Source: Bacillota bacterium (GTDB lineage Bacteria; Bacillota; Sulfobacillia; JAIMAT01). Taken from it: 64,000 nt of DNA. The DNA lies in NCBI GenBank assembly GCA_029960955.1, contig JASBVS010000003.1, forward strand, positions 6,194 to 70,193. The letters are read 5' to 3'. The notes beneath the pieces were generated by a model. The model ran no database searches. It was not told the origin of the DNA and saw only the letters and a list, made by a program, of their open reading frames with translations. This document shows, piece by piece, positions 19,675 to 64,000 of this stretch. How positions within the stretch are numbered: the stretch's first letter is position 1; the number at the start of each line of letters is the position of its first letter. The translations under genes were made by a program, and so were the position numbers.

Positions 19675-19705
19675 GACCGCTCGGAATCGGAGGGGGAGAG
19701 AGCCT

Positions 19706-28843: not shown

Positions 28844-28874
28844 GGAACGCTCACCCCCATGCGGACCGTCGCCT

Positions 28875-29642: not shown

Positions 29643-30396
29643 GGCTTCCAATCTCCTCTTCCTCGTAGATCGGGGTGGAGATGCCGCCGTCCTTGCGGAT
29701 GCGCCAGAAGTGGATGCTCATCCCCACGATCAGCGCCAGCGGCAGGAAGATGACGTGCAGCGTGTACCAGCGCACCAGCGTCGCCGGCCCGACGCTGAAC
29801 CCGCCCAGGAGCGCGGTCCGGATGGCGCCGCCGACCAGCGGCGTCGAACCGGCCATGTTGGTGCCCACGGTGATCGCCCAGAGGGCCAGCTGGTCCCAGG
29901 GCAGCAGGTAGCCGGTGAAGCTGAGCAGGAAGGTGAGGACCAGGAGGCCGACGCCGACCATCCAGTTGTACTCGCGCGGCGGCTTGTAGGCCCCGGTCAG
30001 GAAGACCCGCGTCATGTGCATGAAGACGAGGAGCACCATGGCGTGCGCCGCCCAGCGGTGCAGGTTGCGCATGAACTGCCCGAAGGTGACGCTGGTCGCC
30101 AGGTTCTGGATGGAGAAGTAGGCGCCGGGCACGTCCGGCACGTAGTAGAACATCAGGAAGACGCCGGTGAAGGTGAGGATGAGGAAGAGCCAGACGCTCA
30201 GCCCTCCCAGCCCCCACGTGTAGGTGAGGCGGGTGGCCCGCTTGGGCACCCGCACCGGGTGCAGGTGGAGCGCGAGGCTCTGCAGGATGACCATCGACTG
30301 CCAGCGTGGCTGATCGGGGTACCGCGTCCGGTAGATGGACCTGTAGAGCGAGCTCTCGCGGATCCGCTCCCAGAGGCTCGGCCTGGGCTCCGCCAC
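29623..30396 (-). CDS. qcrB: Cytochrome b6 (menaquinol:cytochrome c reductase cytochrome b).
   Basis: FYYVPDVPGAYFSIQNL...RNLHRWAAHAMVLLVFMHMTRVFLTGAYKPPRE...TGYLLPWDQLALWA is collinear with B. subtilis QcrB. The start is moved to GTG at 30396 (GGGGGG/GGAG SD), because the ORF-track TTG at 30477 lies only about 11 nt downstream of the predicted transcription start. Confidence 0.8.
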   Translation of the reverse strand: MAEPRPSLWERIRESSLYRSIYRTRYPDQPRWQSMVILQSLALHLHPVRVPKRATRLTYTWGLGGLSVWLFLILTFTGVFLMFYYVPDVPGAYFSIQNLATSVTFGQFMRNLHRWAAHAMVLLVFMHMTRVFLTGAYKPPREYNWMVGVGLLVLTFLLSFTGYLLPWDQLALWAITVGTNMAGSTPLVGGAIRTALLGGFSVGPATLVRWYTLHVIFLPLALIVGMSIHFWRIRKDGGISTPIYEEEEIGSHVQLAQ

Positions 30397-30495
30397 CTCC
30401 GACCCCCCTGCGGGCGCCGCGCCGCGGGCCCGGCGGGGCGCCCTTACGTATGATTCCTCTACTTCCCAATGGTGCAAGTATCAGAATGCGCGTTC

Positions 30496-43697: not shown

Positions 43698-43867
43698 GGC
43701 TCCCGCCGCTCTCCCGCCCGGGCCGTGCGAGCGCCGCGGTCCGGGCGGCCGGCTTCCCGTGCCGTTTCCGTAGATTTGCCAGGGCGTCATCCCCCTTCCG
43801 AAGAATTCGGAGATCCCCCGCATGGGTGATTCCGGCCTTCCTGGGCCTCGCCTTAGGCTTTAGGTAG

Positions 43868-43912
43868 GCGCGAGGCTATTTTTTCAGATCAAACTGTTCT
43901 TTTGCCTCGCGC
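43868..43912 (+). promoter_or_regulatory. GC-clamped hairpin with a 27-nt AT-rich loop upstream of cydA (candidate operator or cis-regulatory element).
   Basis: GCGCGAGGC-tattttttcagatcaaactgttctttt-GCCTCGCGC, 40 nt upstream of the cydA ATG. The loop contains a TTTTT-N4-ATCAA FNR/CRP-like half-match. It is the only AT-rich stretch in a 255-nt GC-rich intergenic region. Confidence 0.3.
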
Positions 43913-43952
43913 CAAGGCCACGGGACGCGCTCCCCCACAAGGAGGGCGGGAT

Positions 43953-45347
43953 ATGCCTCTCAACCTTCTGCTCGCGCGATGGCAGTTCGGCGTCACGACC
44001 GTCTTCCATTTCTTCTTCGTACCGTTGACCATCGGCCTCAGCCTGCTGATCGCCGTCCTGGAGACGCTCTACGTGCGCCGCGGCGAGGAAGCCTACCGGA
44101 CGCTGGCGCAATTCTTCGGAAAGCTCTTCCTCGTCAACTTCGCGCTGGGCGTCGTTACCGGAATCTTGCAAGAGTTCCAGTTCGGCATGAACTGGTCCGA
44201 CTACTCGCGCTTCGTGGGTGACGTCTTCGGCGCGCCGCTGGCCGTGGAGGCGCTGCTCGCCTTCTTCATGGAGTCGACCTTCCTGGGGGTCTGGATCTTC
44301 GGCTGGGAGAAGATCTCCAAGTCGCTCCACGCCGCCTCCATGTGGCTGGTCGCCGTGGGCACGCTGATCTCGGCCTTCTGGATCCTGACCGCCAACTCGT
44401 TCATGCAGGAGCCGGTGGGCTACGCGCTGCGCGGAGGCCGCGCCGAGATGGTCAATTTCTTCGCGCTGCTGGGCAACCCGCAGCTCTGGGTGGAGTTCCC
44501 GCACACCGTCTTCGGCGCCTACGCCACGGCCGGCTTCTTCGTGGCGGGCGTCAGCGCCTACCAGATCCTGCGGCGCCATCACCCCGACCTCTTCCTGCGC
44601 TCGCTCAAGCTGGGCGTCGGCTTCGCCGCCGCCTTCAGCCTGCTGGTGGTGGTGATGGGCCACGCGCAGGCGGTCCATCTGGTCAGCGCCCAGCCCATGA
44701 AGATGGCGGCCTCCGAGGCGCTGTGGAAGGACAGCCCGAGCCCGGCGCCCTGGACGCTCCTCGCCATCCCGGACAGCGCCAACCAGAGGAACTACCTGGA
44801 GATCAAGATCCCGTACGCCCTGAGCCTGCTGGCCTACGGCCGGCTCTCCGGGAGCGTGCCGGGCATCGAGGCGCTGCAGGCGCAGGAGGCGGCCCGCTAC
44901 GGGCCGGGCGACTACGTGCCGCCCGTCGGCGTCACCTTCTGGACCTTCCGCATCATGGTGCTGGCCGGCCTGCTCATGCTCATCCTCGGCCTCTACGGCG
45001 CCGTCCTGCTCTGGCGGAAGCGCGACCTGGCGGTGCGGCCGCGCTACCTCCGCCTGCTGGTCTGGGCGATCGCGCTGCCCTACGTCGCCAACGCCACGGG
45101 CTGGCTGATGACGGAGATCGGGCGACAGCCCTGGGTGGTGACCGGCCTCCTGAAGACGGCCGACGCGGTCTCGCCCACCGTCACCGGCCTGGACGTCGGG
45201 CTCAGCCTCGTCCTCTTCACCCTGCTCTACTCGCTGATGGCGGCGGCCGACCTGCGCCTGACGCTGAAGTACGTGCGCCTGGGCCTGGAGAGCCGCGAGC
45301 CCGAGGAAGCACCCGAGGTCGGCGTCCAGCCGACGGTCGGCCTCTGA
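43953..45347 (+). CDS. cydA: Cytochrome bd menaquinol oxidase subunit I.
   Basis: MPLNLLLARWQFGVTTVFHFFFVPLTIGL...Q-loop...GWLMTEIGRQPWVV. ATG at 43953 after GGAGGG. Confidence 0.9.
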   Translation: MPLNLLLARWQFGVTTVFHFFFVPLTIGLSLLIAVLETLYVRRGEEAYRTLAQFFGKLFLVNFALGVVTGILQEFQFGMNWSDYSRFVGDVFGAPLAVEALLAFFMESTFLGVWIFGWEKISKSLHAASMWLVAVGTLISAFWILTANSFMQEPVGYALRGGRAEMVNFFALLGNPQLWVEFPHTVFGAYATAGFFVAGVSAYQILRRHHPDLFLRSLKLGVGFAAAFSLLVVVMGHAQAVHLVSAQPMKMAASEALWKDSPSPAPWTLLAIPDSANQRNYLEIKIPYALSLLAYGRLSGSVPGIEALQAQEAARYGPGDYVPPVGVTFWTFRIMVLAGLLMLILGLYGAVLLWRKRDLAVRPRYLRLLVWAIALPYVANATGWLMTEIGRQPWVVTGLLKTADAVSPTVTGLDVGLSLVLFTLLYSLMAAADLRLTLKYVRLGLESREPEEAPEVGVQPTVGL

Positions 45348-45360
45348 GGGGGGATCGCGG

Positions 45361-46374
45361 GTGGATCTGAACACGCTCTGGTTCGCGCTGATCGTGGTCC
45401 TCTTCGTGGGCTACTTCTTCCTGGAGGGCTTCGACTACGGCGTGGGGATCCTGCTTCCCTGGCTGGGCCGCTCCGACCGGGAACGGCGGGTCCTCCTCAA
45501 CACCGTCGGGCCGCACTGGGACGGCAACGAGGTCTGGCTGCTCACCGCCGGGGGCGCCATGTTCGCCGCCTTCCCCAACTGGTATGCCACCCTCTTCAGC
45601 GGCTTCTACCTGGCGCTGGTCCTGATGCTGCTGGCGCTGATCGTGCGCGGCGTGGGCTTCGAGTACCGCAGCCGCGACGAGAGCCCGCGCTGGCGGAACG
45701 CCTGGGACTGGGCGATCTTCGCCGGCAGCCTGGTGCCGGCGCTGCTCTGGGGCGTGGCGCTGGCCAACCTGGTGCGCGGCCTGCCCATCGACCAGCAGAT
45801 GAACTACAGGGGCAGCCTCTTCACGCTGCTCAACCCGTACGGCCTCCTGGGCGGCCTCTTCACGCTGCTCGCCTTCACGCTCCACGGGGCGCTCTTCCTG
45901 CTGCTCAAGACCGAGGGTGAGATGCGCGAGCGGGCGCGCGCGGCCGCGCGCTGGGTGGGGGCGCTGGCGACGGCGGTGGCGGCGCTCTTCGCGCTCTACA
46001 GCTACTTCGCCACCGGCATCTTCCAGAAGCCGGGCCTCCTGCCCGGGGCGCTGGTGGTCGTCGGCGGCCTGGCGCTGCTGGCCGTGCGGGCGATGCTGGA
46101 CCGCGACCGCGCCGGCTGGGCCTTCGTGCTGAACGGCGTGACCATCGTCGCCGCCGTGGCCACGATCTTTCTCGGGCTCTACCCGAACGTGATGATCTCG
46201 AACCTCAACCCGGCCTGGAACCTGACGATCCACAACGCTTCCTCCAGCCCGTACACGCTGAAGGTGATGAGCATCGTCGCCGTCTCGCTGGTCCCCTTCG
46301 TCCTGGCCTACCAGGCCTGGACCTACTGGGTCTTCCGCAAGCGCGTCGGCCTGCGGGAGAAGCTGACGTACTAG
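45361..46374 (+). CDS. cydB: Cytochrome bd oxidase subunit II.
   Basis: MDLNTLWFALIVVLFVGYFFLEGFDYGVGILLP...GPHWDGNEVWLL. GTG at 45361. Confidence 0.9.
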   Translation: MDLNTLWFALIVVLFVGYFFLEGFDYGVGILLPWLGRSDRERRVLLNTVGPHWDGNEVWLLTAGGAMFAAFPNWYATLFSGFYLALVLMLLALIVRGVGFEYRSRDESPRWRNAWDWAIFAGSLVPALLWGVALANLVRGLPIDQQMNYRGSLFTLLNPYGLLGGLFTLLAFTLHGALFLLLKTEGEMRERARAAARWVGALATAVAALFALYSYFATGIFQKPGLLPGALVVVGGLALLAVRAMLDRDRAGWAFVLNGVTIVAAVATIFLGLYPNVMISNLNPAWNLTIHNASSSPYTLKVMSIVAVSLVPFVLAYQAWTYWVFRKRVGLREKLTY

Positions 46375-46399
46375 CGCGCGGGTGGAGAATAGAGGCAAG

Positions 46400-46430
46400 G
46401 CCGAGGCCGGCCCCGCGGGCCGGCCTCGGC
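46400..46430 (+). promoter_or_regulatory. Perfect 14-bp-stem hairpin between cydB and cydD (candidate intra-operon attenuator or RNA-processing element).
   Basis: GCCGAGGCCGGCCC-cgc-GGGCCGGCCTCGGC, with no following U-tract. Confidence 0.3.
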
Positions 46431-46449
46431 GTCGGGGTGGGGCGTCGAG

Positions 46450-48255
46450 ATGGGAGTCGACCGCAGGCTGATCGCGCGCGTGCGACCGGTTCGCCACCTG
46501 CTCGGCATGGTGGTGGTCCTGGGGCTCCTGGCCGGCCTCCTGGCCGTCGCCCAGGCCTCGCTCCTGGCGGGCGTGGTCGACCGGGTCCTGCTCCGCGGCG
46601 CCGGCCTGCCCGCGCTGGAAAGGCCGGCGGCCGCGCTGCTCGCCGTCATGCTGGCCCGGGCGCTGCTGGCCTGGGGGAGCGAGCTGGCGGCCTTCGAGCT
46701 GGCCGCGCGGGTGAGGCAGGAGCTGCGCGAGCGCCTGGCGCGCCACCTGCTGGCGCTGGGGCCGGCGCGGGCGGCGGGCGAGCGGAGCGGCGAGCTGGTC
46801 AACACGCTGCTGGAGGGCGTCGAGCAGCTGGAGACCTACCTCGGCCGCTACCTGCCGCAGCTGGCGCTGGCGGCCCTGGTACCGCTGGTGCTGGTCGCCT
46901 TCGTCTTCCCGCGCGACTGGCTCTCGGGGGTGATCTTCCTGGTCACCCTGCCGCTCCTGCCCTTCTTCATGTGGCTGATCGGCGGCCAGGCGTCGCTGGC
47001 CGCGCGGCGGCGCTGGGCGGAGCTGGCGCGGCTGAGCGCCCACTTTCTGGACGTGGTGCAGGGGCTGCCGACGCTCAAGCTCTTCGGGCTGGGGAAGCGG
47101 GAGGCCGAGGTGGTGGCGCGGGCCAGCGACCGCTTCCGCGGCGCCACCATGGCGACGCTAAGGGTCGCCTTCCTCTCGGCGCTGGCGCTGGAGCTGCTCG
47201 CCTCGCTCAGCACGGCGGTGGTGGCCGTGGCGCTGGCGCTGCGCCTGCTGGGGGGCGGTCTCTCCTTCCGCGAGGCCTTCTTCGTCCTCCTCCTGGCGCC
47301 GGAGATCTACCAGCCGCTGCGCACGCTGGGCAGCCAGTTCCACGCCTCGACCACCGGCGCGGCCGCCAGCCGGCGCATCTTCGAGCTGCTGGAGCAGCCG
47401 GCGCCCTGGCCGGAGGAAGAGGTCGCCGTCGCCGGCGAGCGGCGCGACCCGGCCGCCCCCGCGCCCCGCGGCCCGGCGGAGCGCGGCCTCCGCTCCGAGG
47501 GCGTCCGCTTCGAGGCGGTCGCCTTCACCTACCCGGGGGCCGAGCGGCCGGCCGTGGCCGGGCTCAGCTTCGCCGTGGAGCCGGGGGAGCGGGTGGCGCT
47601 CGTGGGGCCGACGGGTGCCGGGAAGAGCACGGTGCTGGCGCTCTGGATGGGCTTCCTGCGGCCGGAGGCGGGAGGCGTCCGGGTCGGCGGCCGGCGCCTG
47701 GAGGAGGTGGGCGTCGCCGCCTGGCGGGCGCAGGTGGCGCTGGTGCCGCAGCAGCCCTACCTCTTCGCCGGCAGCGTGGCGGAGAACCTGCGCCTCGCGC
47801 GGCCCGGCGCCGGCGAGGCCGAGCTCTGGGAGGCGCTGCGCGCGGCGGGGGCGGAGGAGTTCGTGCGCGCCCTCCCCTTCGGGCTGGAGACGCGCCTGGG
47901 CGAGGAGGGGGCGGGGCTTTCGGGCGGCGAGCGGCAGCGCCTGGCCATCGCCCGCGCCTGGCTGCGCGGCGCGCCCTGGCTGGTGATGGACGAGCCCACC
48001 GCCCACCTGGACCCCGAGAGCGAGGCGGCCGTCCAGGAGGCGCTCGCCCGCCTGCTGGCGGGGCGGGGGGCTCTGGTGGTGGCGCACCGCCTGGCCACCA
48101 TCCGCCAGCTGGACCGCATCCTCGTCCTCGACCGGGGGCGCCTGGTCGAGGAAGGCTCGCACGAGGCGCTGGTGGCGCGGGGCGGCCTCTACGCGCGCCT
48201 GGCGCGCGCCTACGTCGGACCGGCCGCAGGGGCGGCCGCGCGGGGGGAGGGATAG
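46450..48255 (+). CDS. cydD: ABC transporter permease/ATPase CydD (thiol reductant exporter).
   Basis: Six TM helices plus NBD: GPTGAGKST, LSGGERQRLAIARA, LVMDEPTAHLD. Confidence 0.85.
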   Translation: MGVDRRLIARVRPVRHLLGMVVVLGLLAGLLAVAQASLLAGVVDRVLLRGAGLPALERPAAALLAVMLARALLAWGSELAAFELAARVRQELRERLARHLLALGPARAAGERSGELVNTLLEGVEQLETYLGRYLPQLALAALVPLVLVAFVFPRDWLSGVIFLVTLPLLPFFMWLIGGQASLAARRRWAELARLSAHFLDVVQGLPTLKLFGLGKREAEVVARASDRFRGATMATLRVAFLSALALELLASLSTAVVAVALALRLLGGGLSFREAFFVLLLAPEIYQPLRTLGSQFHASTTGAAASRRIFELLEQPAPWPEEEVAVAGERRDPAAPAPRGPAERGLRSEGVRFEAVAFTYPGAERPAVAGLSFAVEPGERVALVGPTGAGKSTVLALWMGFLRPEAGGVRVGGRRLEEVGVAAWRAQVALVPQQPYLFAGSVAENLRLARPGAGEAELWEALRAAGAEEFVRALPFGLETRLGEEGAGLSGGERQRLAIARAWLRGAPWLVMDEPTAHLDPESEAAVQEALARLLAGRGALVVAHRLATIRQLDRILVLDRGRLVEEGSHEALVARGGLYARLARAYVGPAAGAAARGEG

Positions 48256-48256
48256 C

Positions 48257-50064
48257 GTGGAGCGGCGCCTCCTGCGACGCTGGATCGGCTTCCTGTGGCC
48301 GCTGCGGGGGCAGGTGGCGCTGGGGCTTCTGCTGGGCCTGCTGACGGTCGGCTCGAACGTCGGCCTGCTGGCCCTCTCCGGCTACCTGATCGCCGCCTCC
48401 GCCCTGCGGCCCGCCACCATCCTGCTGCTCTGGGTGCCCATCGTCGGCGTCCGCTTCTTCGGCATCGCGCGGGGCGTCTTCCGCTACCTGGAGCGGCTGG
48501 TCACCCATGACGCCACGCTGCGCCTGCTGGCCCGCCTGCGCGTCGCCTTCTACCGCGCGCTGGAGCCGCTGGCGCCGGCCGGCCTGGGCGACCGGCGCCA
48601 GGGCGACCTGCTCAGCCGCATGGTCCAGGATGTGGAGACGCTGCAGAACCTCTTCCTGCGCGTGCTCTACCCGCCGGCGGTGGCACTCCTCACCCTGGGG
48701 CTCGGCTGGGCGATCCTGGCGCCGCGCGGGCTCCGGCTGGCGCTCGCCTTCGGCGTGGCCTTCCTCCTGGCGGGGGCGGTGCTGCCCGCCCTCGCCCACC
48801 TGGCGGCGCGCCGGCCCGCCGCCGCGCTGCCCCGCGCCCGCGGCGAGCTGAGCACACTGGCCGTCGACGCCGTGCGCGGCATGACCGAGCTGGTCGCCTT
48901 CTCCCAGGAAGCGGCCTGGAGCCGCCGCCTGGCCGCCGCCGGCGAGCGCCTGATCCGCCTGCAACGCGGGGTGCGGCGCGCGGAGGCGGCGACGGGCGCG
49001 CTCCTCGGCCTGCTGCAGAACCTGGCCATGGCGGCCGTCCTCCTCCTGGCGGTGCCGCTGGTCCGCCAGGGCCACCTGCCGGCGGCCGAGATCGCCGGCG
49101 TGGCGCTGGCCGCCCTGGCCGCCTTCGAGGCGGTGGCGCCCCTCCCCGGCGCGCTGGCCGGCCTGGGCGAGAGCCTGGAGGCCTCGCGCCGGCTGGAGGA
49201 GCTGGAGAGGGCGACGCCGCCGGTGCCGGAGCGGTCCTCGGGAGCCGGTTCGGGCGCGGCCCCGACGGCCGGCCTCGCCGGCTCGCGCAGCCGGGTCGGC
49301 CCCGCCCGCCTCGAGGTGCGCGCGCTCCGCTACACGTACCCGGGGGCGGCGCGGCCGGCGCTGGACGGGCTGAGCCTGGTGCTCGAAGCGGGCGCGCGCG
49401 TGGCGCTGGTGGGGCCCAGCGGCTCGGGCAAGAGCACGCTCCTCGACCTGCTCGTCCGCTTCCGCGACCCCGAGGAAGGGTCGATCCTGCTGGACGGCCG
49501 CGACACCCGCGCGCTCGACCCCGAGGCGGTCCGCTCCTTCTTCAGCGTCGTCGCCCAGGAGAGCCACCTCTTCCACGCCAGCCTGGGCGAGAACCTGCGC
49601 CTGGGCAACCCGCGCGCCGGCGAGGCGGAGCTGCGCGAGGCGCTCCGGGTGGCGCAGCTGGAGGGGTGGTGGGCCGGGCTTGCCGAGGGCCTGGCGACGC
49701 AGGTGGGCGAGGCCGGGCTCCGCCTCTCCGGCGGCGAGCGGCGGAGGGTGGCGGTGGCGCGGGCGCTCCTCCGGCCGGCGCCGATCCTCCTTCTCGACGA
49801 GCCGACCGCCGGCCTCGACGCCCTGACGGAGCGGCGCCTCATGGAGGCGCTTCTGGCGGGCCTCGGGGGGCGCAGCCTCCTCCTCGTCACCCACCGGCTG
49901 GCGGGACTGGAGGCGATGGACGAGATCCTCGTCCTCGCCCGCGGCCGCGTGGTCGAGCGCGGGCGTCACGCGGAGCTCCTGGGCCGCCGCGGCCTCTACC
50001 GGCGCATGTGGGAGCTCGAGCAGGAGCTGCTGGTGGAGGAGCCGGCGCTGCTGGGAGCTCCGGG

Positions 50065-50077
<13 letters not shown>
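48257..50077 (+). CDS. cydC: ABC transporter permease/ATPase CydC.
   Basis: GPSGSGKSTL, LSGGERRRVAVARAL, LLLDEPTAGLD. GTG at 48257, 1 nt after the cydD stop. Confidence 0.85.
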
Positions 50078-51405: not shown

Positions 51406-52701
51406 TCAGGCGCCGGCGGAAAGCACCAGCAGCAGGGCAGCCAGCGTGACCGCCAGGACGGGGAGCGTCAGCGTGATGCCCACGCGGAAGTAGTAGCCCC
51501 AGCCGATCTTGACGCCGCGGTGCTCCAGCACGTGCAGCCAGAGGAGGGTCGCCAGGGAGCCGATGGGGGTGATCTTCGGGCCGAGGTCGCTGCCCACCAC
51601 GTTGGCCAGGGCAGCGCCGAGGCGGAGCACCCCCTCCGCTCCACTCGCGTGGATGGCGAGGGCGTCGACCATGACCGTCGGCATGTTGTTCATGACCGAG
51701 GAAAGCCCCGCGGCGAGAAAGCCCGTGTAGAAGACGGACGCCGCCAGCCCGTGCCGGGCCACCCACGCCAGCGAGCGGGCGAGCGCGGCGATCAAGCCCG
51801 CGTTCCGCAGTCCGAAGACGACCACGTACATGCCGACCGAGAAGACCACGACCTTCCACGGGGCCTCCGCGACAAGACGCCGCACGTCGACGGCCGGGCT
51901 CCGCGCGGCGAGGAGGAGCAGCAGCAGGGCGGCGCTCCCCGCCACCACCGAGACCGGGATGTGCAGGGTCTGGCTGGCCAGATAGCCTGCCAGGAGAAGC
52001 CCGAGCACAACCCAGGAGAAGCCGAAAAGCCGCCGGTCGCGGATGGCGTCCACCGGCGCCTTCAGTCCGGTAGTCTCCAGGCGCCCCGGCAGGTCGCGGC
52101 GGAAGAAGAGGTAGAGGGCCAGCAAGCTGGCTACCAGCGCCGCCACGTCGACGGGCAGCATGCGCGCGGAGTAGGCGACGAACCCGATGTGAAAGAAGTC
52201 GGCGGACACGATGTTGACCAGGTTGCTGACGACGAGCGGCAGGGAGGTGCTGTCGGCGACGAAGCCGCCCGCCATGACGAAGGCCAGGATGGCGGCGGCC
52301 GGGAGCCGGAGGGCCTTGACCTGCTCGTAGACGATCGGGGTCAGGATGAGCGCCGCGCCGTCGTTGGCGAAGAGGGCCGCCACCAGCGCCCCCAGGACGA
52401 TGCTGTAGATGAAGAGGCGGATCCCGCTGCCTCGGGCCCGGCGTACCATGTGCAGGGCGGCCCACTCGAAGAAGCCGGTGGCGTCCAGAACCAGCGAGAT
52501 AAGGATGACGGCGACGAAGGCCAGGGTCGCGTCCCAGACGATGCCGACGACCTCGCCCACCTCGGCCGGGGTGACGATGCCGAGTAGGACGGCCAGGGCC
52601 CCGCCGACCGCCGCCGGCCAGCCGATGGAGAGGCCTCGCGGTTGCCAGATGACGAGGGCCAGCGCGACGACGAAGAGAGCGACGGCCAGGAGACTCTGCA
52701 T
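51406..52701 (-). CDS. arsB: ArsB/NhaD-superfamily permease (arsenite efflux-like).
   Basis: About 12 TM helices with ArsB-like repeats (GAALILTPIVY..., VVSNLVNIVSADFF). It is adjacent to arsR. Confidence 0.65.
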   Translation of the reverse strand: MQSLLAVALFVVALALVIWQPRGLSIGWPAAVGGALAVLLGIVTPAEVGEVVGIVWDATLAFVAVILISLVLDATGFFEWAALHMVRRARGSGIRLFIYSIVLGALVAALFANDGAALILTPIVYEQVKALRLPAAAILAFVMAGGFVADSTSLPLVVSNLVNIVSADFFHIGFVAYSARMLPVDVAALVASLLALYLFFRRDLPGRLETTGLKAPVDAIRDRRLFGFSWVVLGLLLAGYLASQTLHIPVSVVAGSAALLLLLLAARSPAVDVRRLVAEAPWKVVVFSVGMYVVVFGLRNAGLIAALARSLAWVARHGLAASVFYTGFLAAGLSSVMNNMPTVMVDALAIHASGAEGVLRLGAALANVVGSDLGPKITPIGSLATLLWLHVLEHRGVKIGWGYYFRVGITLTLPVLAVTLAALLLVLSAGA

Positions 52702-53011
52702 GGCTGGAAATGCACCCCCAAGCTTCAGGTCTTCTGTCGCGAAGGCAGCTCGTCACGGGTCCAGCCGCTCGAACCGGGTAGCTCGGACGAGGTTGCTGGG
52801 AATGCCCTTCTCCGCCTCGTCCCGTCCAGCCGGGGCGGGAGCGGGAGACGTGGAGGCTCCACGGGCCGGACCTGCACTCCGGCCCTCCCGGTCGGTGGCC
52901 CGCCCCGCGCGCCAGGGATGCCGCGCTGCCGGGAAGCACGCAAGAGGTCGAGGCGGAAACCCGGCAGGCGCTCCCGGCGGCCGGCGCGGAGGGAAAGCCG
53001 GCACAGGCGGG

Positions 53012-53455
53012 TCACCCGTCGCGGAACCCGTCTGCGGCAGGCTCCCGGGGCGCGGGTGCCGGCAGACCGACTTGTCGGACCCCGAGGTTCTCCGAGGCAG
53101 GCCCCTGTCGCCCGGTGCGGCAGGAGTTGACGGGCGTCATGGAGGCGAAGCGCTTCTGCACCGCCTGCGGAAGCCGGACCGCGCGGAGCGCCTCGGACGC
53201 ATAGGCGGGCAACGGCCGGCGCAGGCGGTAGAAGACCCAGATGCCGCGCCGCTCGGCGGCCACCAGGCCGGCCTCCTTCAGGCGGCGCAGGTGTTCGCTG
53301 ATGGCGGGCTGGCTGATGCCGAAGAGGTCGACGAACTCGCAGACGCAGATCTCGCGCTGTTGCAGGAGAGACAGCATCTGCAGGCGGGTGTCGTCTCCGA
53401 GGGCCCGGAAGACCGTGGCCACCGTGGAAGAGGGAGTTCGCACAGCCTTCATCAC
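53012..53455 (-). CDS. arsR: ArsR/SmtB-family metalloregulator with a canonical As(III)-binding CVC motif.
   Basis: DDTRLQMLSLLQQREICVCEFVDLFGISQPAISEHLRRLKEAGLV. ATG at 53455 after AAGGTG. It has a roughly 40-aa C-terminal tail. Confidence 0.8.
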   Translation of the reverse strand: MMKAVRTPSSTVATVFRALGDDTRLQMLSLLQQREICVCEFVDLFGISQPAISEHLRRLKEAGLVAAERRGIWVFYRLRRPLPAYASEALRAVRLPQAVQKRFASMTPVNSCRTGRQGPASENLGVRQVGLPAPAPREPAADGFRDG

Positions 53456-53476
53456 CTTATTGCCATTTCCCGATGA

Positions 53477-53508
53477 ACTCTAACGCATGCCTCCCCCTTG
53501 CACAAGGG
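53477..53508 (-). promoter_or_regulatory. Candidate arsR promoter (-35 TTGTGC, 17-nt spacer, -10 TAGAGT) with a 6-2-6 inverted repeat CCCTTG-ca-CAAGGG overlapping the -35 (candidate ArsR operator).
   Basis: The complement of 53500-53505 is TTGTGC and of 53477-53482 is TAGAGT. The palindrome spans 53495-53508. A local AT-rich patch runs from there to the arsR RBS. Confidence 0.4.
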
Positions 53509-53636: not shown

Positions 53637-55369
<1,733 letters not shown>

Positions 55370-55373
<4 letters not shown>

Positions 55374-56026
55374 GCTTCCCGTCCCCCCCGTCCCGGGCCG
55401 GCGGCCTCCCCGGCCGCCGCCCAAGCGATCTCCGACCAGCTCGGCCGCCGCGCCTCGAAGGCGGCGATGGCCGCCTCCCGCGCGAGCGTCACGTCGATGT
55501 CGTCCACTCCCTCCAGCAACCGCCGCCTCCTCTCCGGATCGACGCGGAAGGCGGCGACGAAGCCGGAGGCGTCGCGGACCTCCTCCCGTTCCAGGTCGAC
55601 CGTCAGCTGGTAGCCGGGCTGGTCACCGGTCCGGCGGAAGAGCTCCTCCACCGCCTCGGGTTCCAGCCGGACGGGCAGGAGCCCGTTCTGCAGGCAGTTG
55701 GCCTCGAAGATGTCGGCGAAGCTGGGCGCCACGATCGCCCGGAAGCCGTACTGCTGGAGCGCCCAGGGCGCGTGTTCGCGGCTCGAGCCGCAGCCGAAGT
55801 TCTCCCGCGCCAGCAGGATGGTGGCTCCCCGGTAGCGCGGCTGGTTGAGGACGAAGTCCGGGTCGGGCGAACCGTCAGGACGGTAGCGCCAGTCGTGGAA
55901 GAGGAAGGGCCCGTACCCCGTCCGCTCGATCCGCTTGAGGAACTGCTTGGGAATGATGGCGTCGGTGTCCACGTCGGGCCGGTCGAGCGGCGCCACCAGC
56001 CCGGTATGGCGGACGAAGCGCTCCAT
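55370..56026 (-). CDS. leuD: 3-isopropylmalate dehydratase small subunit.
   Basis: [39 protein letters not shown]...[21 protein letters not shown]. The ATG at 56026 overlaps the leuC stop (ATGA). Confidence 0.9.
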
Positions 56027-57489
56027 CAGGCCCCCACCCCCTCGGCCGCCGGTTCCGCCCGGCCGGCCGCCTCGCCGTCGAACCAGCGGCGCACGTCGAC
56101 GAAGTGGCCGGCGACGGCGGCGGCCGCCGCCATGGCCGGGCTGACCAGATGGGTCCGGCCGCCGCGTCCCTGCCGGCCCTCGAAGTTCCGGTTGGAGGTG
56201 GAGGCGCAGCGCTCGCCGGGCCGCAGGACGTCGGGATTCATGCCCAGGCAGAGCGAGCAGCCCGAGGCGCGCCACTCGAAACCCGCCTCCAGGAAGAGGC
56301 GGTCAAGCCCCTCGGCCTCCGCCTGGCGGCGGACGCTCTCGGAGCCCGGCACCACCATGGCGCGGACCTCCGGGGCGACGCGCCTCCCGCGCACGACCGC
56401 CGCCGCGGCGCGCAGGTCTTCCAGGCGCGCGTTGGTGCAGGAGCCGATGAAGACCCGGTCGACGCGGATCGACTCCATGGGCGTCCCCGGCTCGAGCCCC
56501 ATGTAGGCGAGCGCCCGTTCCGCCGCCCCCCGCTCCACCGGATCCTCCATCGAGCGGGGGTCGGGCACCGCCGCGGTCACCGCCACCGTCATGCCCGGGT
56601 GCGTCCCCCAGGTCACCTGCGGCGCCACCTCGGAGGCGTCGAGCACGAGCCGCCGGTCGTAGGAGGCGCCGGGGTCGCTGCGGAGCGCCCGCCAGGCGCG
56701 GAGCGCCTCCTCCCAGGCGTCGCCCCGGGGGGCGAAGCGCCTTCCTCGCAGGTAGGCGAAGGTGGTCTCGTCCGGCGCCACCAGCCCGACGCGGGCGCCC
56801 GCCTCGATGGCCATGTTGCAGAGCGTCATCCGCTCCTCCATGCTCATCCGCTCGACCGCCGGCCCGGTGAACTCGACGGCGTAGCCCTGGCCGACCCGCG
56901 GCCCGTGGCGGCCGATGAAGGCGAGGATCAGGTCCTTGACCGTGACGCCGGGGGCGAGCCGCCCCTCGAAGCGGACCTCCATCGTCCTGGGCCGGCGCTG
57001 CCAGAGGGTCTGGGTGGCCAGGACGTGCTCCACCTCGCTGGTGCCGATGCCGAAGGCCAGCGCCCCGAAGGCGCCGTGCGTGGCCGTGTGGCTGTCGCCG
57101 CAGACGATCAGCTTGCCGGGCTGGGTCAGGCCGAGCTCGGGTCCGATCACGTGGACGATGCCGCGCTCCGGGCTCCGCAACCCGTAGAGGGGCACGCCGA
57201 ACTCCCGGCAGTTGGCCTCCAGCGCCTCCACCTGCCGGCGCGAGACCGGGTCGACGATCCGCTCCGCGGTGAGCAGGCCCGGCTCGGTGGGCACGTTGTG
57301 GTCGACGGTGGCCACCGTCAGGTCGGGCCGGCGCACGCGGCGGCCGGCCAGCCGCAACCCTTCGAAGGCCTGGGGCGAGGTGACTTCGTGGACCAGGTGC
57401 AGGTCGACGTAGAGGAGCGCCTGGCCGCCGGGCTCCTCGTGGACCACGTGGCTCCGCCACAGCTTCTCGAACAACGTCTGCGCTGGCAT
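56026..57489 (-). CDS. leuC: 3-isopropylmalate dehydratase large subunit.
   Basis: [16 protein letters not shown]...[27 protein letters not shown]...[14 protein letters not shown]...[14 protein letters not shown] at 57489 after GGAGAGGAGG. Confidence 0.9.
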
Positions 57490-57742: not shown

Positions 57743-57772
57743 TTGACTTTCGTTGCGCGCCTCGGGTAGCAT
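57743..57772 (+). promoter_or_regulatory. Candidate sigma-A promoter (-35 TTGACT, 18-nt spacer, -10 TAGCAT) driving the T-box leader and the ilvH-ilvC-leuA-leuB-ilvB operon.
   Basis: TTGACT at 57743-57748 and TAGCAT at 57767-57772, just upstream of the predicted T-box Stem I. Confidence 0.4.
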
Positions 57773-57859
57773 CGCTGCCAACAACCGGCCGTCCTGGAGG
57801 TCGGGCCGCTCCTCTTACAACCCGTACGAGCGCAAGGCGATGAGGGACAGCGCCCGCGA

Positions 57860-58236
57860 AGGCGCCGGAGGCAGAGAGCCGGGGTAGCTGCGAACCGGTT
57901 CCGGCCGTCGCAGGTTCTCCGTCCCGAGCTGCGTGCCCGAACCATCGCCGCCTCGGGCGGTCTCCGGTGCGCCTCCGGACCTGCCGAGGGGCGAAAGTAG
58001 GGTGCGCCGGCCCGGACTCTACGGGCCGTTAGCCGAAGCGAGGCGGCAGCCTCGGGCCTTCCCCGTCTTCGCGACGAGGCGGAGGCGTGCGCCGGACGCA
58101 CGTCGCCGCCGTCGCCGCGGCCGGGAGAAGGCACGCTCCGGCGCAGCCGCAAAGCAGGGTGGTACCGCGAGGCAGGAAGGAGGACCTCGCCCCTGGAGGG
58201 GCGGGGTCTTTTTTTATCCAGCGGCTGCGTCCGGCG
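57860..58236 (+). ncRNA. T-box riboswitch leader (tRNA-sensing antiterminator) with an intrinsic terminator, upstream of ilvH.
   Basis: Conserved T-box sequence AAAGCAGGGTGGTACCGCGAGG at 58171-58192 (consensus AANNNGGGTGGNACCGCG). F-box-like CCGTTA at 58046-58051. AGAGAG at 57893-57898 in the Stem I region. Terminator hairpin CGCCCC-tgga-GGGGCGGGG followed by TCTTTTTTTAT (58204-58238). The T-box 3' half can pair with the terminator's 5' arm, forming an antiterminator. Confidence 0.7.
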
Positions 58237-58320: not shown

Positions 58321-58845
58321 ATGGAGTTCGCGCTGGCGGTGAGGGTCGAGAACGAGCCCGGGGTTCTGGCCAGGGTGGCGTCGCTGGTGAGCCGCCGCGG
58401 CTTCAACATCGAGAGCCTGGCGGTCGGTCCCACGGAGGACGCCTCGGTGTCGCGGATCACGCTGGTCTGCAAGGGGGACGAGCGCGACCGGGAGCGGCTC
58501 CGCCGCCAGCTCGAGAAGCTGGTCGAGGTGCTGGAGGCCTGGCACGTGCCGGGGGAGAGCTCGGTGCGGCGCGAGCTGGCGCTGGTGCGGGTGCGAGCCG
58601 ATCCCGGCCGCAGGGCCGAGCTTCTGCAGGTGGCCGGCATCTTCCGATCGCGGGTGGTGCATGTCGACCGGAGCGCGCTGGTGCTGGAGACGACGGGCGA
58701 CCCGGAGAAGATCCAGGCCTGGCTCGAGGTGCTGAGAGACTTCGGGATCGAGGAAGTGGCCCGCACCGGGATCGTGGCGCTCGACCGCGAGCGACGCGCG
58801 GTCCCGCAGGCGGAGTTCGAGAGCCGCGAGGAGGCGGCCTTCTGA
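58321..58845 (+). CDS. ilvH: Acetolactate synthase small (regulatory) subunit.
   Basis: [49 protein letters not shown] (ACT domain) plus a C-terminal AHAS-small domain. ATG at 58321; the ORF-track start at 58087 lies inside the T-box leader. Confidence 0.85.
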
Positions 58846-58879: not shown

Positions 58880-59935
58880 ATGGGCAGGATCTGGTATGAG
58901 GCGGACGCCGACCCGCGGCTCCTGCAGGGCAAGAGCGTGGCGGTGATCGGCTACGGCAGCCAGGGCCACGCGCAGGCGCAGAACCTGCGCGACCACGGCG
59001 TCGACGTGATCGTGGGCATCCGGCCCGGGGCGAGCGCCCGAAGGGCGGAGGCGGACGGCTTCCCCGTCTTCGACGTGGCGGAGGCCACCCGGCGCGCCGA
59101 CATCGTCCACATCCTGGTCAACGACGAGGTGCAGCGCGACCTCTACGAGAGCGCCATCCGGCCCCACCTGCGCCCGGGCATGGCGCTCGGCTTCTCCCAC
59201 GGTTTCAACATCCACTACGGCCAGATCGTGCCGCCGCCGGGCGTCGACGTCTTCCTGGTGGCGCCCAAGGCGCCCGGGCACGAGTTCCGGCGGCTGGTCC
59301 GCGAGGGACAGGGCGTGCCGGCCCTCCTCGCCGTCGCGCAGGACGCCAGCGGGCAGGCCTGGGATCTCGCCCTGGCCTTCGCCTGGGGCATCGGCTGCGC
59401 CCGCGCGGGCGTCATCGAGACCACCTTCCGCGAGGAGACGGAGTCCGACCTCTTCGGCGAGCAGGCGGTCCTCTGCGGCGGTGTCAGCGAGCTGATCAAG
59501 GCCGGCTTCGAGACGCTGGTCGAGGCCGGCTACCAGCCCGAGATCGCCTACTTCGAGTGCCTCAACGAGATGAAGCTGATCGTGGACCTCATCTACCAGG
59601 GCGGCCTCGCCTGGATGCGCTACTCGGTCTCGGACACGGCCGAGTACGGCGACATGACGCGCGGACCGCGGGTGATCGACGGGCACGTGCGCGAGAACAT
59701 GCGCCGGCTCCTGGCCGAGATCCAGGACGGCAGCTTCGCGCGCGAGTGGATCCTGGAGAACCGGGCCGGGCGGCCGGTCTACCGGGCGCGCCAGCGGCAG
59801 GAGCGGGAGCACCCCATCGAGGCGGTGGGTCGCAAGCTCCGCGCCATGATGCCGTGGACGGGGAACCGGCTTCCTCCGGACATGGAGCAGGCGGCCGAGA
59901 AGGCGCCCTCGGGCGCCGGCGCGGCCACCCGTTGA
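58880..59935 (+). CDS. ilvC: Ketol-acid reductoisomerase.
   Basis: [50 protein letters not shown]...[16 protein letters not shown]...[11 protein letters not shown]. Confidence 0.95.
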
Positions 59936-59958: not shown

Positions 59959-61152
59959 ATGCGCAGGATCTACATCTTCGACACCACGCTGCGAGACGGC
60001 GAGCAGTCGCCGGGCGTCAACCTGCTGCCCGAGGAGAAGCTGGAGATCGCGCACCAGCTGGAGCGGCTGGACGTCGACGTGATCGAGGCCGGCTTCCCCG
60101 CCACCTCCGAGGGCGACTTCCTGGCGGTCTCGCGCATCGCCCAGGAAGTGCGCGAGCCGGTGATCGCGGCGCTGGCCCGCACCCACCCCTCCGACATCGA
60201 GGCGGCGGCGCGCGCGCTGGAGAAGGCGGCGCGGCCCCGCATCCACACCTTCACCTCGTTCTCGCGCATCCACATCGAGCGCATGCTGCGCAAGAGCGAG
60301 GAAGAGGTCCTGGAGATGAGCGTCGCCGCCGTCCGCCAGGCCCGGCGCTACGTCGACGACGTCGAGTTCAGCGGGCAGGACGCGGGCCGCGCCGACCCGG
60401 AGTACATGGTACGCGTCATCGAGGCGGTGATCGAGGCGGGCGCCACGGTGATCAACATCCCCGACACGGTCGGCTGGACGCTTCCGGAGGAGTTCGGGGC
60501 GCTGATCGCCACCCTCCGCCGGCGCGTCCGCGGCATCGAGCGGGTCACCCTCTCCGTCCACTGCCACAACGACCTCGGCCTGGCGACGGCCAACACGCTG
60601 GCCGGCCTCCAGGCGGGCGCCGACCAGGCGGAGGTGGCGGTCAACGGCATCGGCGAGCGGGCCGGGAACACCTCGCTGGAAGAGGTGGTGATGGCCATCG
60701 CCGCCCGCGGCGACCGGCTGGGGATGTACACCGGCGTGGAGACGCGCGAGATCATGGCGGCCAGCCAGCTGGTCCGGCGCCTGACGGGCATGCCGGTCCA
60801 GCCCAACAAGGCGATCGTCGGCGCCAACGCCTTCGCCCACGAGTCGGGCATCCACCAGGACGGCGTGCTGAAGGAGCGCCGCACCTACGAGATCCTGGAC
60901 CCCGAGGCGGTCGGGCTGGACAGCTCCAACCTGGTCCTGGGCAAGCACTCGGGCCGGCACGCCTTCGCCGCCCGGCTGGAGGCGCTCGGCTACCGGCTGG
61001 AGCGGGAGCGGCTGGAGGCGGCCTTCCGCCGCTTCAAGGCCCTGACCGACCAGACCAAGGAGGTGCGCGACGGCGACCTGGTGGCGCTGGTGGAGGCGAG
61101 CCTGCGCGAGGAAGCCGAAGCCGTGGCCGACCACGGAGGCGACGCGGCATGA
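59959..61152 (+). CDS. leuA: 2-isopropylmalate synthase, short form (397 aa), lacking the C-terminal LeuA-dimer/leucine-binding regulatory domain.
   Basis: [22 protein letters not shown]...[45 protein letters not shown]...[12 protein letters not shown] at 59959. The stop TGA at 61150-61152 overlaps the leuB ATG, leaving no room for the regulatory domain. Confidence 0.85.
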
Positions 61153-62354
61153 GCGAGGCGTGGAGGCTTCTCCTCCTGCCCGGCGACGGCATCGGGCCGG
61201 AGGTGAGCGAGGCGACCGAGGCGGTGCTGGAGGTCGCGGCCGCCTGGTTGGAGAGGCGGAGCGGGCGGGGCGTGGCGGTCCGGCGCGGCTGGATCGGCGG
61301 CGCGGCCATCGACCGCTGGGGGGTACCGCTTCCCGAGGAGACGCTGGAGGCGGCGCGCGCCTCGGACGCGGTCCTCCTGGCGGCGGTGGGCGGGCCGCGC
61401 TGGGAGCACCTGCCCGGCCACCTGCGGCCCGAGGCGGGGCTGCTGGCGCTGCGCCGGGAGCTGGGCGTCTACGCGAACCTGCGCCCGGCCACGGTCTGGC
61501 CGGGGCTGGAGGGCCGCTCGCCCCTCCGCCCGGAGGTGGTGGCCGGCACGGACTGCCTCGTCGTCCGCGAGCTGACGGGCGGCCTCTACTACGGCCAGCC
61601 GCGCGGTCGCGGCGTCGGCTCGGGCGGCGAGATCCGCGCCGTCGACACCATGGAGTACAGCGCCGACGAGATCCGCCGCGTGGCGCACGTCGCCTTCCGC
61701 GCCGCCCGGCGGCGCCGCCGGCTTGTGACCAGCGTCGACAAGGCCAACGTGCTGGAGAACTCGCGCCTCTGGCGGGAGGTCGTCTCCAACGTGGCGCGCG
61801 ACTACCCGGACGTCCGCCTCGAACACCAGCTGGTGGACAGCGCGGCCATGCTCCTGGTCAGCCAGCCGGCCCGCTTCGACGTGCTCCTGACGGAGAACCT
61901 CTTCGGCGACATCCTCAGCGACCTGGCCGGCGGCGTGGTGGGAAGCCTCGGCCTCCTGCCCTCGGCCAGCCTGGGCGACGGCGGGCCGGGCCTCTACGAG
62001 CCCGTCCACGGTTCGGCGCCCGACATCGCCGGCCAGGATCGCGCCAACCCGCTGGGCATGATCCTCTCGCTGGCGATGCTTTTCGAGAGCAGTTTCGGCG
62101 CGGCCTGGCTGGCCGCCGAGCTGCGCGAGGCGGTGGCCGCCGTGCTGGCCGAAGGCTGGCGGACGGCCGACATCGCCGCGCCCGGCGCGCGGCTGGCGGG
62201 CACGCGCGAGATGGGCCGGCGGGTGGCCCGGGAGCTGGAGAGGCGAGCCCGCGCCGGCGAGGCCGGCCCCGACGCCCGCGCCGGCCGGCGCTCCGGCGCC
62301 GAGTCCGAGCCGGTCGATTCGGCGGCCCGCCCGCACATGGCCGCGGGCGCCTGA
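61149..62354 (+). CDS. leuB: 3-isopropylmalate dehydrogenase.
   Basis: [11 protein letters not shown]...[11 protein letters not shown]...NLRP...SVDKANVLE...[31 protein letters not shown]. Confidence 0.9.
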
Positions 62355-62369: not shown

Positions 62370-64000
62370 ATGCGCGCCAACGCAGCCGCCCAGCTCCTCC
62401 GCTGCCTGGAGGAGGAGGGCGTCGAGGTGATCTTCGGCTACCCCGGCGGCGCGGTCCTTCCGATTTACGACGCGCTGGTCGACGCGCCGATCCGCCACGT
62501 CCTGGTCCGCCACGAGCAGGGCGCGGTCCACGCCGCCGACGGCTACGCGCGCGCCTCCGGTCGCGTGGGCGTCTGCCTGGCCACCTCGGGCCCCGGGGCG
62601 ACCAACCTGGTGACCGGCCTGGCCACCGCCTACATGGACTCGGTGCCGGTGGTCGCCATCACCGGCCAGGTCGCGCGCCCGCTGGTCGGCTCCGACGCCT
62701 TCCAGGAAGCGGACGTGGTGGGCATCACCCGCGCCACCACCAAGCACAACTACGCGGTGACGCGCCCCGCGGAGCTGCCCCGCGTCGTCCACGAAGCCTT
62801 CCACCTGGCGCGGAGCGGCCGGCCCGGCCCCGTGCTGATCGACCTGCCCAAGGACGTCACCCTGGCCGACGGCCCCTTCCCCCATCCCCAGGCGCCCCCC
62901 TCGCGGCGCGGTTACCGCCCGCGGCTGGAGCCCGATCCGGCCGAGGTCGAGGCGGCTGCGGCCGCGCTGGCGGGGGCGCAGAGGCCGGTGGTGATGGTGG
63001 GCGGCGGCATCATCCACGGCGGGGCGGCGGGGGAGCTGCGGCGCTTCCTGGAGACGACGGGCTTCCCGGCGGTCAGCACGCTGATGGGGCTGGGCGCCCT
63101 GCCGGCCGACGACCCCCGCCACCTGGGGCTGGTGGGCATGCACGGCACCTACGCGGCCAACCGGGCCGTCAGCCAGGCCGACCTGGTGCTGGGGCTGGGT
63201 CTCCGCTTCGACGACCGCGTGACGGGCAACGCCTCGCGCTTCGCGCCGCGCGCGCGGATCGTCCACGTGGACATCGACCCCTCGGAGATCGGCAAGAACG
63301 TCCGCGCCGACGTGGCGGTCCTGGGGGATCTGATCCGCGTCCTGCCGCGCCTGCTGGAACGGCTTCTGGCCGTCTGGGCCGCCTCGGGCCGCCCGGACCC
63401 GGCGCCCTGGTGGGAGGCGCTCCGCTCCTGGCAGGCGCACCAGGGCTGGGACCTGCACACCCCCATGGAGCTGGGCGGGGAGGAAGGGCGACCGCTCCGT
63501 CCGCAGGGCGTGATCCAGCAGGTGGCGCGCGTGGCCGGCCCCGAGGCGATCGTGGCCACCGACGTGGGCCAGCACCAGATGTGGACGGCGCTCCTCTTCC
63601 CCTTCCGGCGACCGCGCCAGCTGATCACGTCCGGGGGTCTGGGCACCATGGGCTACGGGCTGCCGGCGGCCATCGGCGCCCAGATGGCCGAGCCGGAGAG
63701 GCCGGTCTGGCTGGTGACCGGCGACGGCAGCTTCCAGATGAACGTCCAGGAGATGGCCACCGCCGTCAACTACGGGCTCCCGCTCCGCGTGGTCATCGTC
63801 GACAACCGGAGCCTGGGCATGGTCCGCCAGTGGCAGGAGCTCTTCCACCAGGCGCGCTACTCGGCGGTCATGCTGGAGCCGCTCCCCGACTGGGTCCGCC
63901 TGGCCGAAGCCTACGGATGGCAAGGCTGGAAGGTGGAGCGGGCCGCCGAGCTGGAGCCCGCGCTGGCGGCGCTGGCCGAGGCCAGGGGCCCCGCGCTGGT
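62370..64000 (+). CDS. ilvB: Acetolactate synthase large (catalytic) subunit; the 3' end lies beyond the window.
   Basis: MRANAAAQLLRCLEEEGVEVIFGYPGGAVLPIYDAL...HEQGAVHAADGYARASGRVGVCLATSGPGATNLVTGLATAYMDSVPVVAITGQV...GTMGYGLPAAIGA...ITGDGSFQMN. ATG at 62370 after GAGAGGGAGGGA. It is not in the ORF track because there is no in-window stop. Confidence 0.85.
   Translation, partial: MRANAAAQLLRCLEEEGVEVIFGYPGGAVLPIYDALVDAPIRHVLVRHEQGAVHAADGYARASGRVGVCLATSGPGATNLVTGLATAYMDSVPVVAITGQVARPLVGSDAFQEADVVGITRATTKHNYAVTRPAELPRVVHEAFHLARSGRPGPVLIDLPKDVTLADGPFPHPQAPPSRRGYRPRLEPDPAEVEAAAAALAGAQRPVVMVGGGIIHGGAAGELRRFLETTGFPAVSTLMGLGALPADDPRHLGLVGMHGTYAANRAVSQADLVLGLGLRFDDRVTGNASRFAPRARIVHVDIDPSEIGKNVRADVAVLGDLIRVLPRLLERLLAVWAASGRPDPAPWWEALRSWQAHQGWDLHTPMELGGEEGRPLRPQGVIQQVARVAGPEAIVATDVGQHQMWTALLFPFRRPRQLITSGGLGTMGYGLPAAIGAQMAEPERPVWLVTGDGSFQMNVQEMATAVNYGLPLRVVIVDNRSLGMVRQWQELFHQARYSAVMLEPLPDWVRLAEAYGWQGWKVERAAELEPALAALAEARGPAL

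Follow-up and report, generated by a model that had tools for sequence, protein, structure and literature searches.

The canonical 2-isopropylmalate synthase (IPMS, LeuA), as described by the NF002086 and TIGR00973 models, is a protein of about 510-520 amino acids that carries, beside its catalytic module, a leucine-binding regulatory domain of about 120 residues (LeuA_dimer, PF08502). Removal of this domain from the IPMS of Neisseria meningitidis and Mycobacterium tuberculosis strongly impaired catalysis (PMC9860122; bioRxiv 10.1101/2024.06.14.598950), so that activity cannot be presumed for a truncated bacterial LeuA. Enzymes without the domain are known from plants, namely the MAM synthase 6E1J, IBMS, an engineered Brassica IPMS1 and a banana splice isoform, all of which have the same truncation point and fold as the protein described here. 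In such IPMS-derived plant forms the leucine feedback disappears with the domain whereas activity persists, and a plant IPMS with the domain deleted was found to be active, leucine-insensitive and competitively inhibited by ketoisocaproate (bioRxiv 10.1101/2024.06.14.598950). Leptospira LeuA2 (LbIPMS2; 4OV4, 4OV9; NF042434) likewise consists of a TIM barrel and subdomains I and II with the regulatory domain missing, and leucine is stated not to inhibit it (PMC12345160); in Leptospira it accompanies a long LeuA1 as an additional paralogue. T-box leaders upstream of leuA have also been documented (PMC2494555). The short architecture is therefore already known, with one natural example (LbIPMS2) characterised in structure and biochemistry, and what is notable in the present locus is the orthology of a short gene in the operon slot of leuA together with the recurrence of the deletion.

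The window referred to below is the whole stretch of DNA analysed, 64 kb from a Bacillota MAG. In this window ilvD, leuD and leuC on the reverse strand face an operon on the forward strand that runs from a T-box leader through ilvN, ilvC, leuA and leuB to ilvB. The features are as follows:

53637-57489, reverse strand: divergent genes leuC (56026-57489), leuD (55370-56026) and ilvD (53637-55373), from open reading frames, with an Aconitase_C match for leuD
57743-57772, forward strand: candidate sigma-70-type promoter upstream of the T-box (TTGACT, 18 nt, TAGCAT), in a block conserved in loci L087 and L003 by alignment
57830-58216, forward strand: leucine-type T-box leader of ilvN-ilvC-leuA-leuB-ilvB, from its core motif, partial Rfam matches and leader comparison
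58321-58845, forward strand: ilvN, acetolactate synthase small subunit with its ACT domain retained (Pfam ACT_AHAS_ss and ALS_ss_C)
58880-59935, forward strand: ilvC, ketol-acid reductoisomerase (identical protein MDI3297841.1)
59959-61152, forward strand: leuA, short-form 2-isopropylmalate synthase of 397 amino acids plus stop, regulatory domain missing (ORF, Pfam, NCBIfam, dN/dS)
59965-60774, forward strand: catalytic TIM barrel of LeuA (HMGL-like), residues 3-272 (PF00682, E=1.5e-88; AlphaFold pLDDT mostly >90)
60814-61059, forward strand: accessory domain HCS_D2 of LeuA (subdomains I and II), residues 286-367 (PF22617, E=1.8e-30)
61060-61149, forward strand: C-terminal helix and poorly conserved tail of LeuA, residues 368-397, standing in place of the regulatory domain (AlphaFold, dN/dS)
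61149-62354, forward strand: leuB, 3-isopropylmalate dehydrogenase (TIGR00169, 459 bits against a cutoff of 353; identical protein MDI3297842.1)
62370-64000, forward strand: ilvB, acetolactate synthase large subunit, running off the end of the window (Pfam TPP_enzyme_N, M and C)

The leuA reading frame extends from the ATG at 59959 to the TGA at 61150-61152, and this stop overlaps the leuB ATG (61149-61151) as ATGA. A Shine-Dalgarno sequence for leuB, GGAGG at 61135-61139, was read within the final codons of leuA. The first-pass annotation had proposed this overlap; the ORF coordinates agree with it and translational coupling is accepted. Stop/start overlaps also occur at the leuC-leuD and leuD-ilvD junctions (1 nt and 4 nt), the starts of leuC, leuD and ilvD having been chosen by comparison with L087, while the ilvB ATG at 62370 is preceded by GAGGGAGGG.

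Only the HMGL-like and HCS_D2 domains were recognised by Pfam in the 397-residue LeuA, with no match to PF08502. The NCBIfam equivalog model for IPMS, NF002086, is passed with 624 bits (cutoff 532), and the match covers model positions 5-390 of 516. For TIGR00973, a quarter of which has no counterpart in the short protein, the score is for this reason just under the cutoff (584 bits against 598.7). Long proteins dominate its best homologues, 115 of 120 being 501-578 amino acids in length and carrying PF08502. The observation that this LeuA ends where the regulatory domain would start, and that the usual length is about 510-520 residues, thus holds.

The closest relatives of the short protein are LeuA proteins of 510-520 amino acids, 69-73% identical and encoded in syntenic operons; over canonical LeuA as a whole the catalytic module is 60-73% identical. 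Scores for citramalate synthase fall far short of the cutoffs, being 196 against 450 and 154 against 950 for the two CimA models (TIGR00977, NF042433), as does that for NifV (TIGR02660, 316 bits against 463), and the window ORFs that were scanned include no nif genes. The profile comparison with LeuA, CimA and NifV that had been called for, in case this copy belonged with the latter two, consequently places it with LeuA. The resemblance to NifV and short CimA suggested at first survives as one of architecture only. Judged by its sequence matches and its position, the short leuA is a positional orthologue of LeuA, neither CimA nor NifV.

Catalytic positions have been preserved to a high degree. 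Residues R12, D13, E136, S138, N166, D169, T170, H201 and H203 are invariant in 121 of 121 sequences, the near-invariant P168 is kept, and all the catalytic positions checked in canonical LeuA are retained in the window protein. At 135 positions the long forms reach a conservation of 95% or more, and all five short forms keep the same residue at 125 of them. Three substitutions in the window clade (Y173W, M313L and K366T/S) affect residues with a conservation of 96% or more in long forms, and might be compensatory or without consequence. A replacement of a catalytic glutamate by Q140 was also considered. The position, which we take by our own mapping to be the equivalent of M. tuberculosis E218, is variable among canonical LeuA (E in 68, Q in 34 and M in 19), and the idea was dropped since Q also occurs there in long forms.

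The AlphaFold model of the short LeuA has a mean pLDDT of 87, with a confident barrel, a low-scoring loop at residues 289-304, a helix spanning residues 371-392 and disorder over the last five residues (393-397). Its best full-length fold matches are enzymes that naturally lack the regulatory domain or were built without it. The best match in the PDB is the MAM synthase 6E1J (TM 0.85 over 393 columns, 51% identity); LbIPMS2 (4OV4/4OV9) matches over about 388 columns at about 32% identity, and SaHCS(dRAM) 6KTQ is also among the best. The alignment reaches residue 471 of 6E1J, and the alignable region of the short LeuA ends at residues 379-382. Residues 3-382 align to 25-411 of the 414-residue 4OV4 chain, which indicates that the whole catalytic module is retained. 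In Leptospira IPMS the catalytic module alone is reportedly sufficient for activity, a finding said to go back to Zhang et al. in 2014.

Although LeuA2 has the same architecture, it is only about 32% identical to the window LeuA, whose score with NF042434 is 255 bits where 500 would be required, so the two are of independent origin. They also differ in standing, as LeuA2 is a paralogue added to a long enzyme whereas the window gene is the orthologue of the operon's own leuA. MAM and IBMS, for their part, are eukaryotic enzymes of specialised metabolism with altered pockets, whereas the pocket and context of the window LeuA are those of leucine synthesis.

The short gene is shared by related genomes. 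A 397-amino-acid ORF with the four-nucleotide stop/start overlap recurs in loci L087, L003-L006 and L094-L096, which represent three other NCBI MAGs (the sister MAG GCA_029961055.1, which holds L087, together with GCA_023511835.1 and GCA_019683775.1) and five SRA-run assemblies, about ten independent assemblies in all. Five distinct DNA versions were distinguished among these loci, and internal stops number zero in ten loci. Between the window and L004, which are about 91% identical in DNA, the dN/dS of leuA is 0.224, and between the window and L087 it is 0.169. By part, it is 0.175 for residues 1-367 and about 0.69 for the tail (residues 368-397), the latter value resting on few sites and indicating relaxed constraint.

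A frameshift concealing a regulatory domain had been raised as a possible refutation. Searches by tblastn with six regulatory domains gave nothing better than E=0.5 in all frames of the 64-kb window. Seven related loci with the short form likewise had no match at E<=0.1, whereas four long-form loci, included as a positive control, gave matches at E values from 1e-17 to 1e-91. There is also no coding space downstream of leuA for a hidden domain, as LeuB fits its model from residue 7. A frameshift is therefore excluded. The same searches bear on the notion that a gene of its own provides the domain in trans, as in a split LeuA; they were empty in the window and in the seven loci despite the strong controls, and a split enzyme is hardly credible. 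That leuA is instead a decaying remnant, a view that the source MAG's public annotation seems to share, draws on several observations. The exact 397-residue protein was absent from the protein collection searched and the source MAG apparently released no such protein, although the accessions of the flanking IlvC and LeuB (MDI3297841.1 and MDI3297842.1) run on consecutively; no gene was called at the same site in L087; and truncation inactivated the N. meningitidis and M. tuberculosis enzymes. The source annotation probably set the gene aside as incomplete. Decay is nonetheless contradicted by the dN/dS values of 0.17-0.22 over three genomes, by the lack of internal stops, by the intact catalytic residues and by the maintenance of the short architecture at 71% and 64% identity. 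The coupling to leuB has likewise been kept in spite of different start codons (ATGA in the window, TTGA in L004), and the orthologue was released as a protein in other MAG annotations. We regard decay as very improbable; the short leuA is neither an artefact nor a pseudogene.

Gene order in related genomes shows that the window leuA occupies a slot held by long-form leuA. In the long-form loci L088/L089 the order is ilvN-ilvC-leuA(520)-leuC-leuD-leuB-ilvB-ilvD, and L001 has this same order with a short leuA of 398 codons (P0004) in the same slot. A second arrangement, T-box-leuA-leuC, is found with a long gene of 520 codons in L091/L092 and with a short one of 400 in L002, and both the long P0031 and the short P0040 are arranged in this way.

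A neighbour-joining tree built on the catalytic core placed the short forms at three points among long forms. A single loss for all short forms was considered and rejected, the grouping of all short forms having been recovered in 0 of 100 bootstrap replicates and P0040 being 92% identical in its core to the long P0031; the window clade grouped with P0004 in 3 of 100, on a weakly supported backbone. Between L002 and L091 the DNA shows 86% identity to either side of an alignment gap of about 363 nt, and the leuA of L002 retains the final six codons of the long gene (..AEGAR*). By these alignments P0040 arose when about 121 codons, those of the regulatory domain, were cut out cleanly and in frame. 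The tree placement and this excision together imply two or more independent losses of the domain among related lineages, possibly three. All of the short forms end about 15 residues or less past the ..DLxALVE helix, with which subdomain II ends.

Similar proteins are widespread. An exhaustive search covered 1.84 billion cluster representatives, of which the best 150 were inspected. The clusters were formed at 50% identity, and by manual count about 30 of the 150 have a length of 377-424 amino acids and cover the query in full; the ten that were tested all match NF002086 with 523-624 bits, the match ending at about position 377-398 of 516. As about 20% of the best representatives are short and those tested are of the LeuA type, the short architecture is common. 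These other proteins are only 45-58% identical to the window LeuA, which places them in separate lineages, and some of them may be fragments.

The leader upstream of ilvN was recognised from its sequence motif, from partial matches judged by E-value and from comparison with other leaders. Its elements within the window are as follows:

57837-57843 and 57926-57928, forward strand: K-turn of Stem I
57844-57848 pairing with 57921-57925, forward strand: helix by the K-turn, which covaries
57873-57877, forward strand: AG bulge (AGAGA) of Stem I
57883-57894, forward strand: distal loop of Stem I
57917-57919, forward strand: specifier CUC, spaced as in the Rfam-validated leaders of L002 and L091
58156-58169, forward strand: T-box core AGGGUGGUACCGCG, an exact motif match
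58184-58208, forward strand: terminator stem (about -35 kcal/mol), with U7 at 58209-58215

The antiterminator has a seven-nucleotide UGGUACC bulge, and the strand at 58186-58194 is common to antiterminator and terminator. In all nine leaders compared, CUC stands one base before the helix adjacent to the K-turn, and this helix covaries (GGGAC/GUCCC, CAGGG/CCCUG and UGGGA/UCCCA). The window leader thus shares with the ilv-leu/leuA T-boxes of RF00230 the core, the antiterminator bulge, the terminator, the K-turn, the AG bulge, the distal loop and the CUC. It differs from them in being GC-rich and expanded and in having a C, rather than the usual purine, after the codon. At the gathering threshold RF00230 had no match in the whole window, the leader scoring 18 bits against 93; the leader of L087 gave two partial matches in the right order, one of 31 bits (E=2.7e-5) and another of 15. 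The long-form relatives carry the same leader, with 97 bits in Rfam for L091/L092 and the core motif and CUC in L088-L090, so the T-box predates the loss of the domain. The suggestion that the pathway relies on T-box control instead of allostery was accordingly right in that a leader with a CUC specifier heads the operon, but this leader is ancestral and is found with long enzymes as well. By the comparison of leaders, the T-box is the leucine-responsive control that is left and not a replacement evolved to that end.

We consider it likely that the window leuA is the operon's own functional short-form IPMS, and that it lost LeuA_dimer in situ through a deletion of about 120 codons. Such a deletion would have left the TIM barrel and accessory subdomains I and II complete, and the enzyme would still condense acetyl-CoA with 2-ketoisovalerate. 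With the leucine site gone, allosteric inhibition by leucine would be lost; the absence of the domain and the precedents indicate that the short LeuA is probably leucine-insensitive. The sole leucine-responsive control recognised at the locus would then be the ancestral CUC T-box upstream of ilvN, the leader presumably being read through at its terminator when tRNA-Leu is uncharged. Some product control may persist through competitive inhibition by 2-ketoisocaproate, as in the domain-deleted plant enzymes.

Two other functions may be weighed against this one. Loss of the domain could mark recruitment to another substrate, be it pyruvate (giving citramalate for isoleucine) or 2-oxoglutarate (giving homocitrate), or to the lengthening of carbon chains as by MAM or HphA, seeing that IPMS-derived enzymes without the domain (MAM, IBMS, HphA) use new substrates, that the top PDB match of the short LeuA is a MAM synthase and that neither ilvA nor cimA is visible in the window. 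However, the protein passes the IPMS equivalog model while remaining far under the CimA and NifV cutoffs, it is about 70% identical to canonical LeuA, and its gene, which follows a T-box with a Leu specifier (CUC), lies in an ilvNC-leuA-leuB-ilvB context beside leuCD and ilvD. It also retains both S138 and P168, the counterparts of the two pocket positions changed in MAM. The switch from pyruvate to citramalate suggested by the first-pass annotation is disfavoured because the substrate and metal positions checked are unaltered, and a change of substrate in general is improbable. The second possibility is that the short LeuA is an auxiliary, unregulated isozyme, and that regulated flux is carried by a long, leucine-sensitive LeuA (or a CimA) encoded elsewhere. 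Leptospira has just such a pair in LeuA1 and LeuA2, and the region inspected comprises 64 kb of the genome plus the flanks in relatives. Against this, the short gene fills the canonical leuA slot, which in relatives is held by the long form; the 64-kb window contains no second HMGL-like gene; and none of the traceable members of the 120 best homologues (at least 60% identity) comes from the same MAG. We hold this second arrangement to be unlikely, though far from negligible. One candidate for a long paralogue in the same MAG, P0105 (MDI3280721.1), comes from the same study but belongs to GCA_029961005.1, at 70.7% GC, and hence to a different genome. A contig scan with the short LeuA gave relatives at 54-63% identity among the matches listed.

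The reading of leuA as the operon's own short-form IPMS has consequences for annotation. The gene has seemingly been dropped as a protein from both the source MAG and its sister MAG, though it is conserved and under selection, and a pathway reconstruction would therefore wrongly score leucine biosynthesis as incomplete. The short LeuA proteins and their long relatives at 70-92% identity also form natural pairs with which to ask why removal of the domain kills only some bacterial IPMS, and the short forms are candidates for feedback-free, possibly thermostable enzymes for leucine or isopentanol production.

At the locus itself, sensing of tRNA-Leu charging at the RNA level would persist after allosteric sensing of the end product was lost. 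It may tentatively be proposed, as a possibility rather than an expectation, that the short LeuA is the sole IPMS and that whole high-GC Bacillota lineages have given up allosteric leucine feedback, relying on the tRNA-Leu-sensing T-box. If this is true, the repeated deletions would reflect selection for a deregulated supply of 2-ketoisocaproate or leucine, for example for iso-branched fatty-acid primers, and they would show which bacterial LeuA backgrounds, unlike those of Neisseria and Mycobacterium, tolerate loss of the domain.

Loss of the regulatory domain can be followed between two related loci, one short-form (L002, 2226-3428) and one long-form (L091, 8001-9563). Compared with the latter, the leuA of L002 has lost about 121 codons cleanly and in frame; the deleted stretch corresponds exactly to the regulatory domain, and the last six codons of the gene are retained after it. 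Outside the deletion the two genes share 86% DNA identity and 92% protein identity. Since L002 is a single 5-kb contig, this deletion variant is known from one assembly. It was also observed that the gene following leuC at L091 and at a second long-form locus, L092, encodes an apparent LeuD-LeuB fusion, as judged from its Pfam domains.

L091 10884-12539 and L092 10887-12539: gene of 550-551 aa after leuC, matching Aconitase_C (LeuD) and Iso_dh (LeuB)

Short proteins of this type were widely found by the search with the short LeuA. Around one fifth of the best 150 representatives of 50%-identity clusters (P0130-P0279; manual count) are of the bacterial LeuA type with 377-424 aa, and their C-terminal ends lie at the same domain boundary. 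The NCBIfam LeuA model NF002086 was the best or near-best match for all of the short representatives tested (10 of 10).

Three residues that are 96-99% conserved across long-form LeuA are altered in the window clade:

60475-60477: residue 173, Y173W
60895-60897: residue 313, M313L
61054-61056: residue 366, K366T/S

K366 is also altered, to Q, in P0004, an independent short form. These substitutions may represent adjustments to the loss of the regulatory domain.

Neither the source MAG nor its sister MAG (L087) seems to include a released protein for the short leuA itself:

59959-61152, + strand: short leuA in the window
8811-10004: its counterpart in L087

The proteins flanking it in the window bear consecutive accessions (MDI3297841.1 and MDI3297842.1), and in L087 a 1.2-kb gap without a gene call occupies its position. 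The orthologue is named '2-isopropylmalate synthase' in four other MAG annotations.

A T-box leader was recognized upstream of ilvN.

57830-58216, + strand: expanded, GC-rich T-box leader of the leucine type (CUC)

It scores 18 bits against an Rfam gathering threshold of 93 and is missed at threshold. Its features include a strong terminator and an antiterminator bulge, along with an exact match to the T-box core. L087 and three further short-form loci (L003, L006 and L001) carry this leader too. A 230-aa ORF has been called across this region in L003 (491-1183), L006 (502-1194) and L094 (491-1183), another locus with the 397-aa form; it has no Pfam match, and GC-rich non-coding RNA has probably been mistaken here for a gene.

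The acetolactate synthase subunits are split across the operon, with the small subunit first (ilvN, 58321-58845) and the large subunit last (ilvB, 62370-64000), an order common to L001, L003 and the long-form operon L088. In the window ilvN retains an intact ACT domain, so that allosteric control at the acetolactate synthase step is probably kept.

Elsewhere in the window, 5867-9140 contains many long overlapping ORFs on both strands, none of which shows the GC distribution over codon positions, with very high GC3, that the genes in the rest of the window have. Respiratory and arsenic genes are located in four regions, listed together:

17230-20470, 27103-30480, 43857-50077 and 51406-53479: succinate dehydrogenase/fumarate reductase subunits; Rieske, cytochrome b and cytochrome c proteins; cytochrome bd oxidase with CydDC-like ABC transporters; arsR-arsB

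These genes suggest a respiring, high-GC (74%) lineage of Bacillota.
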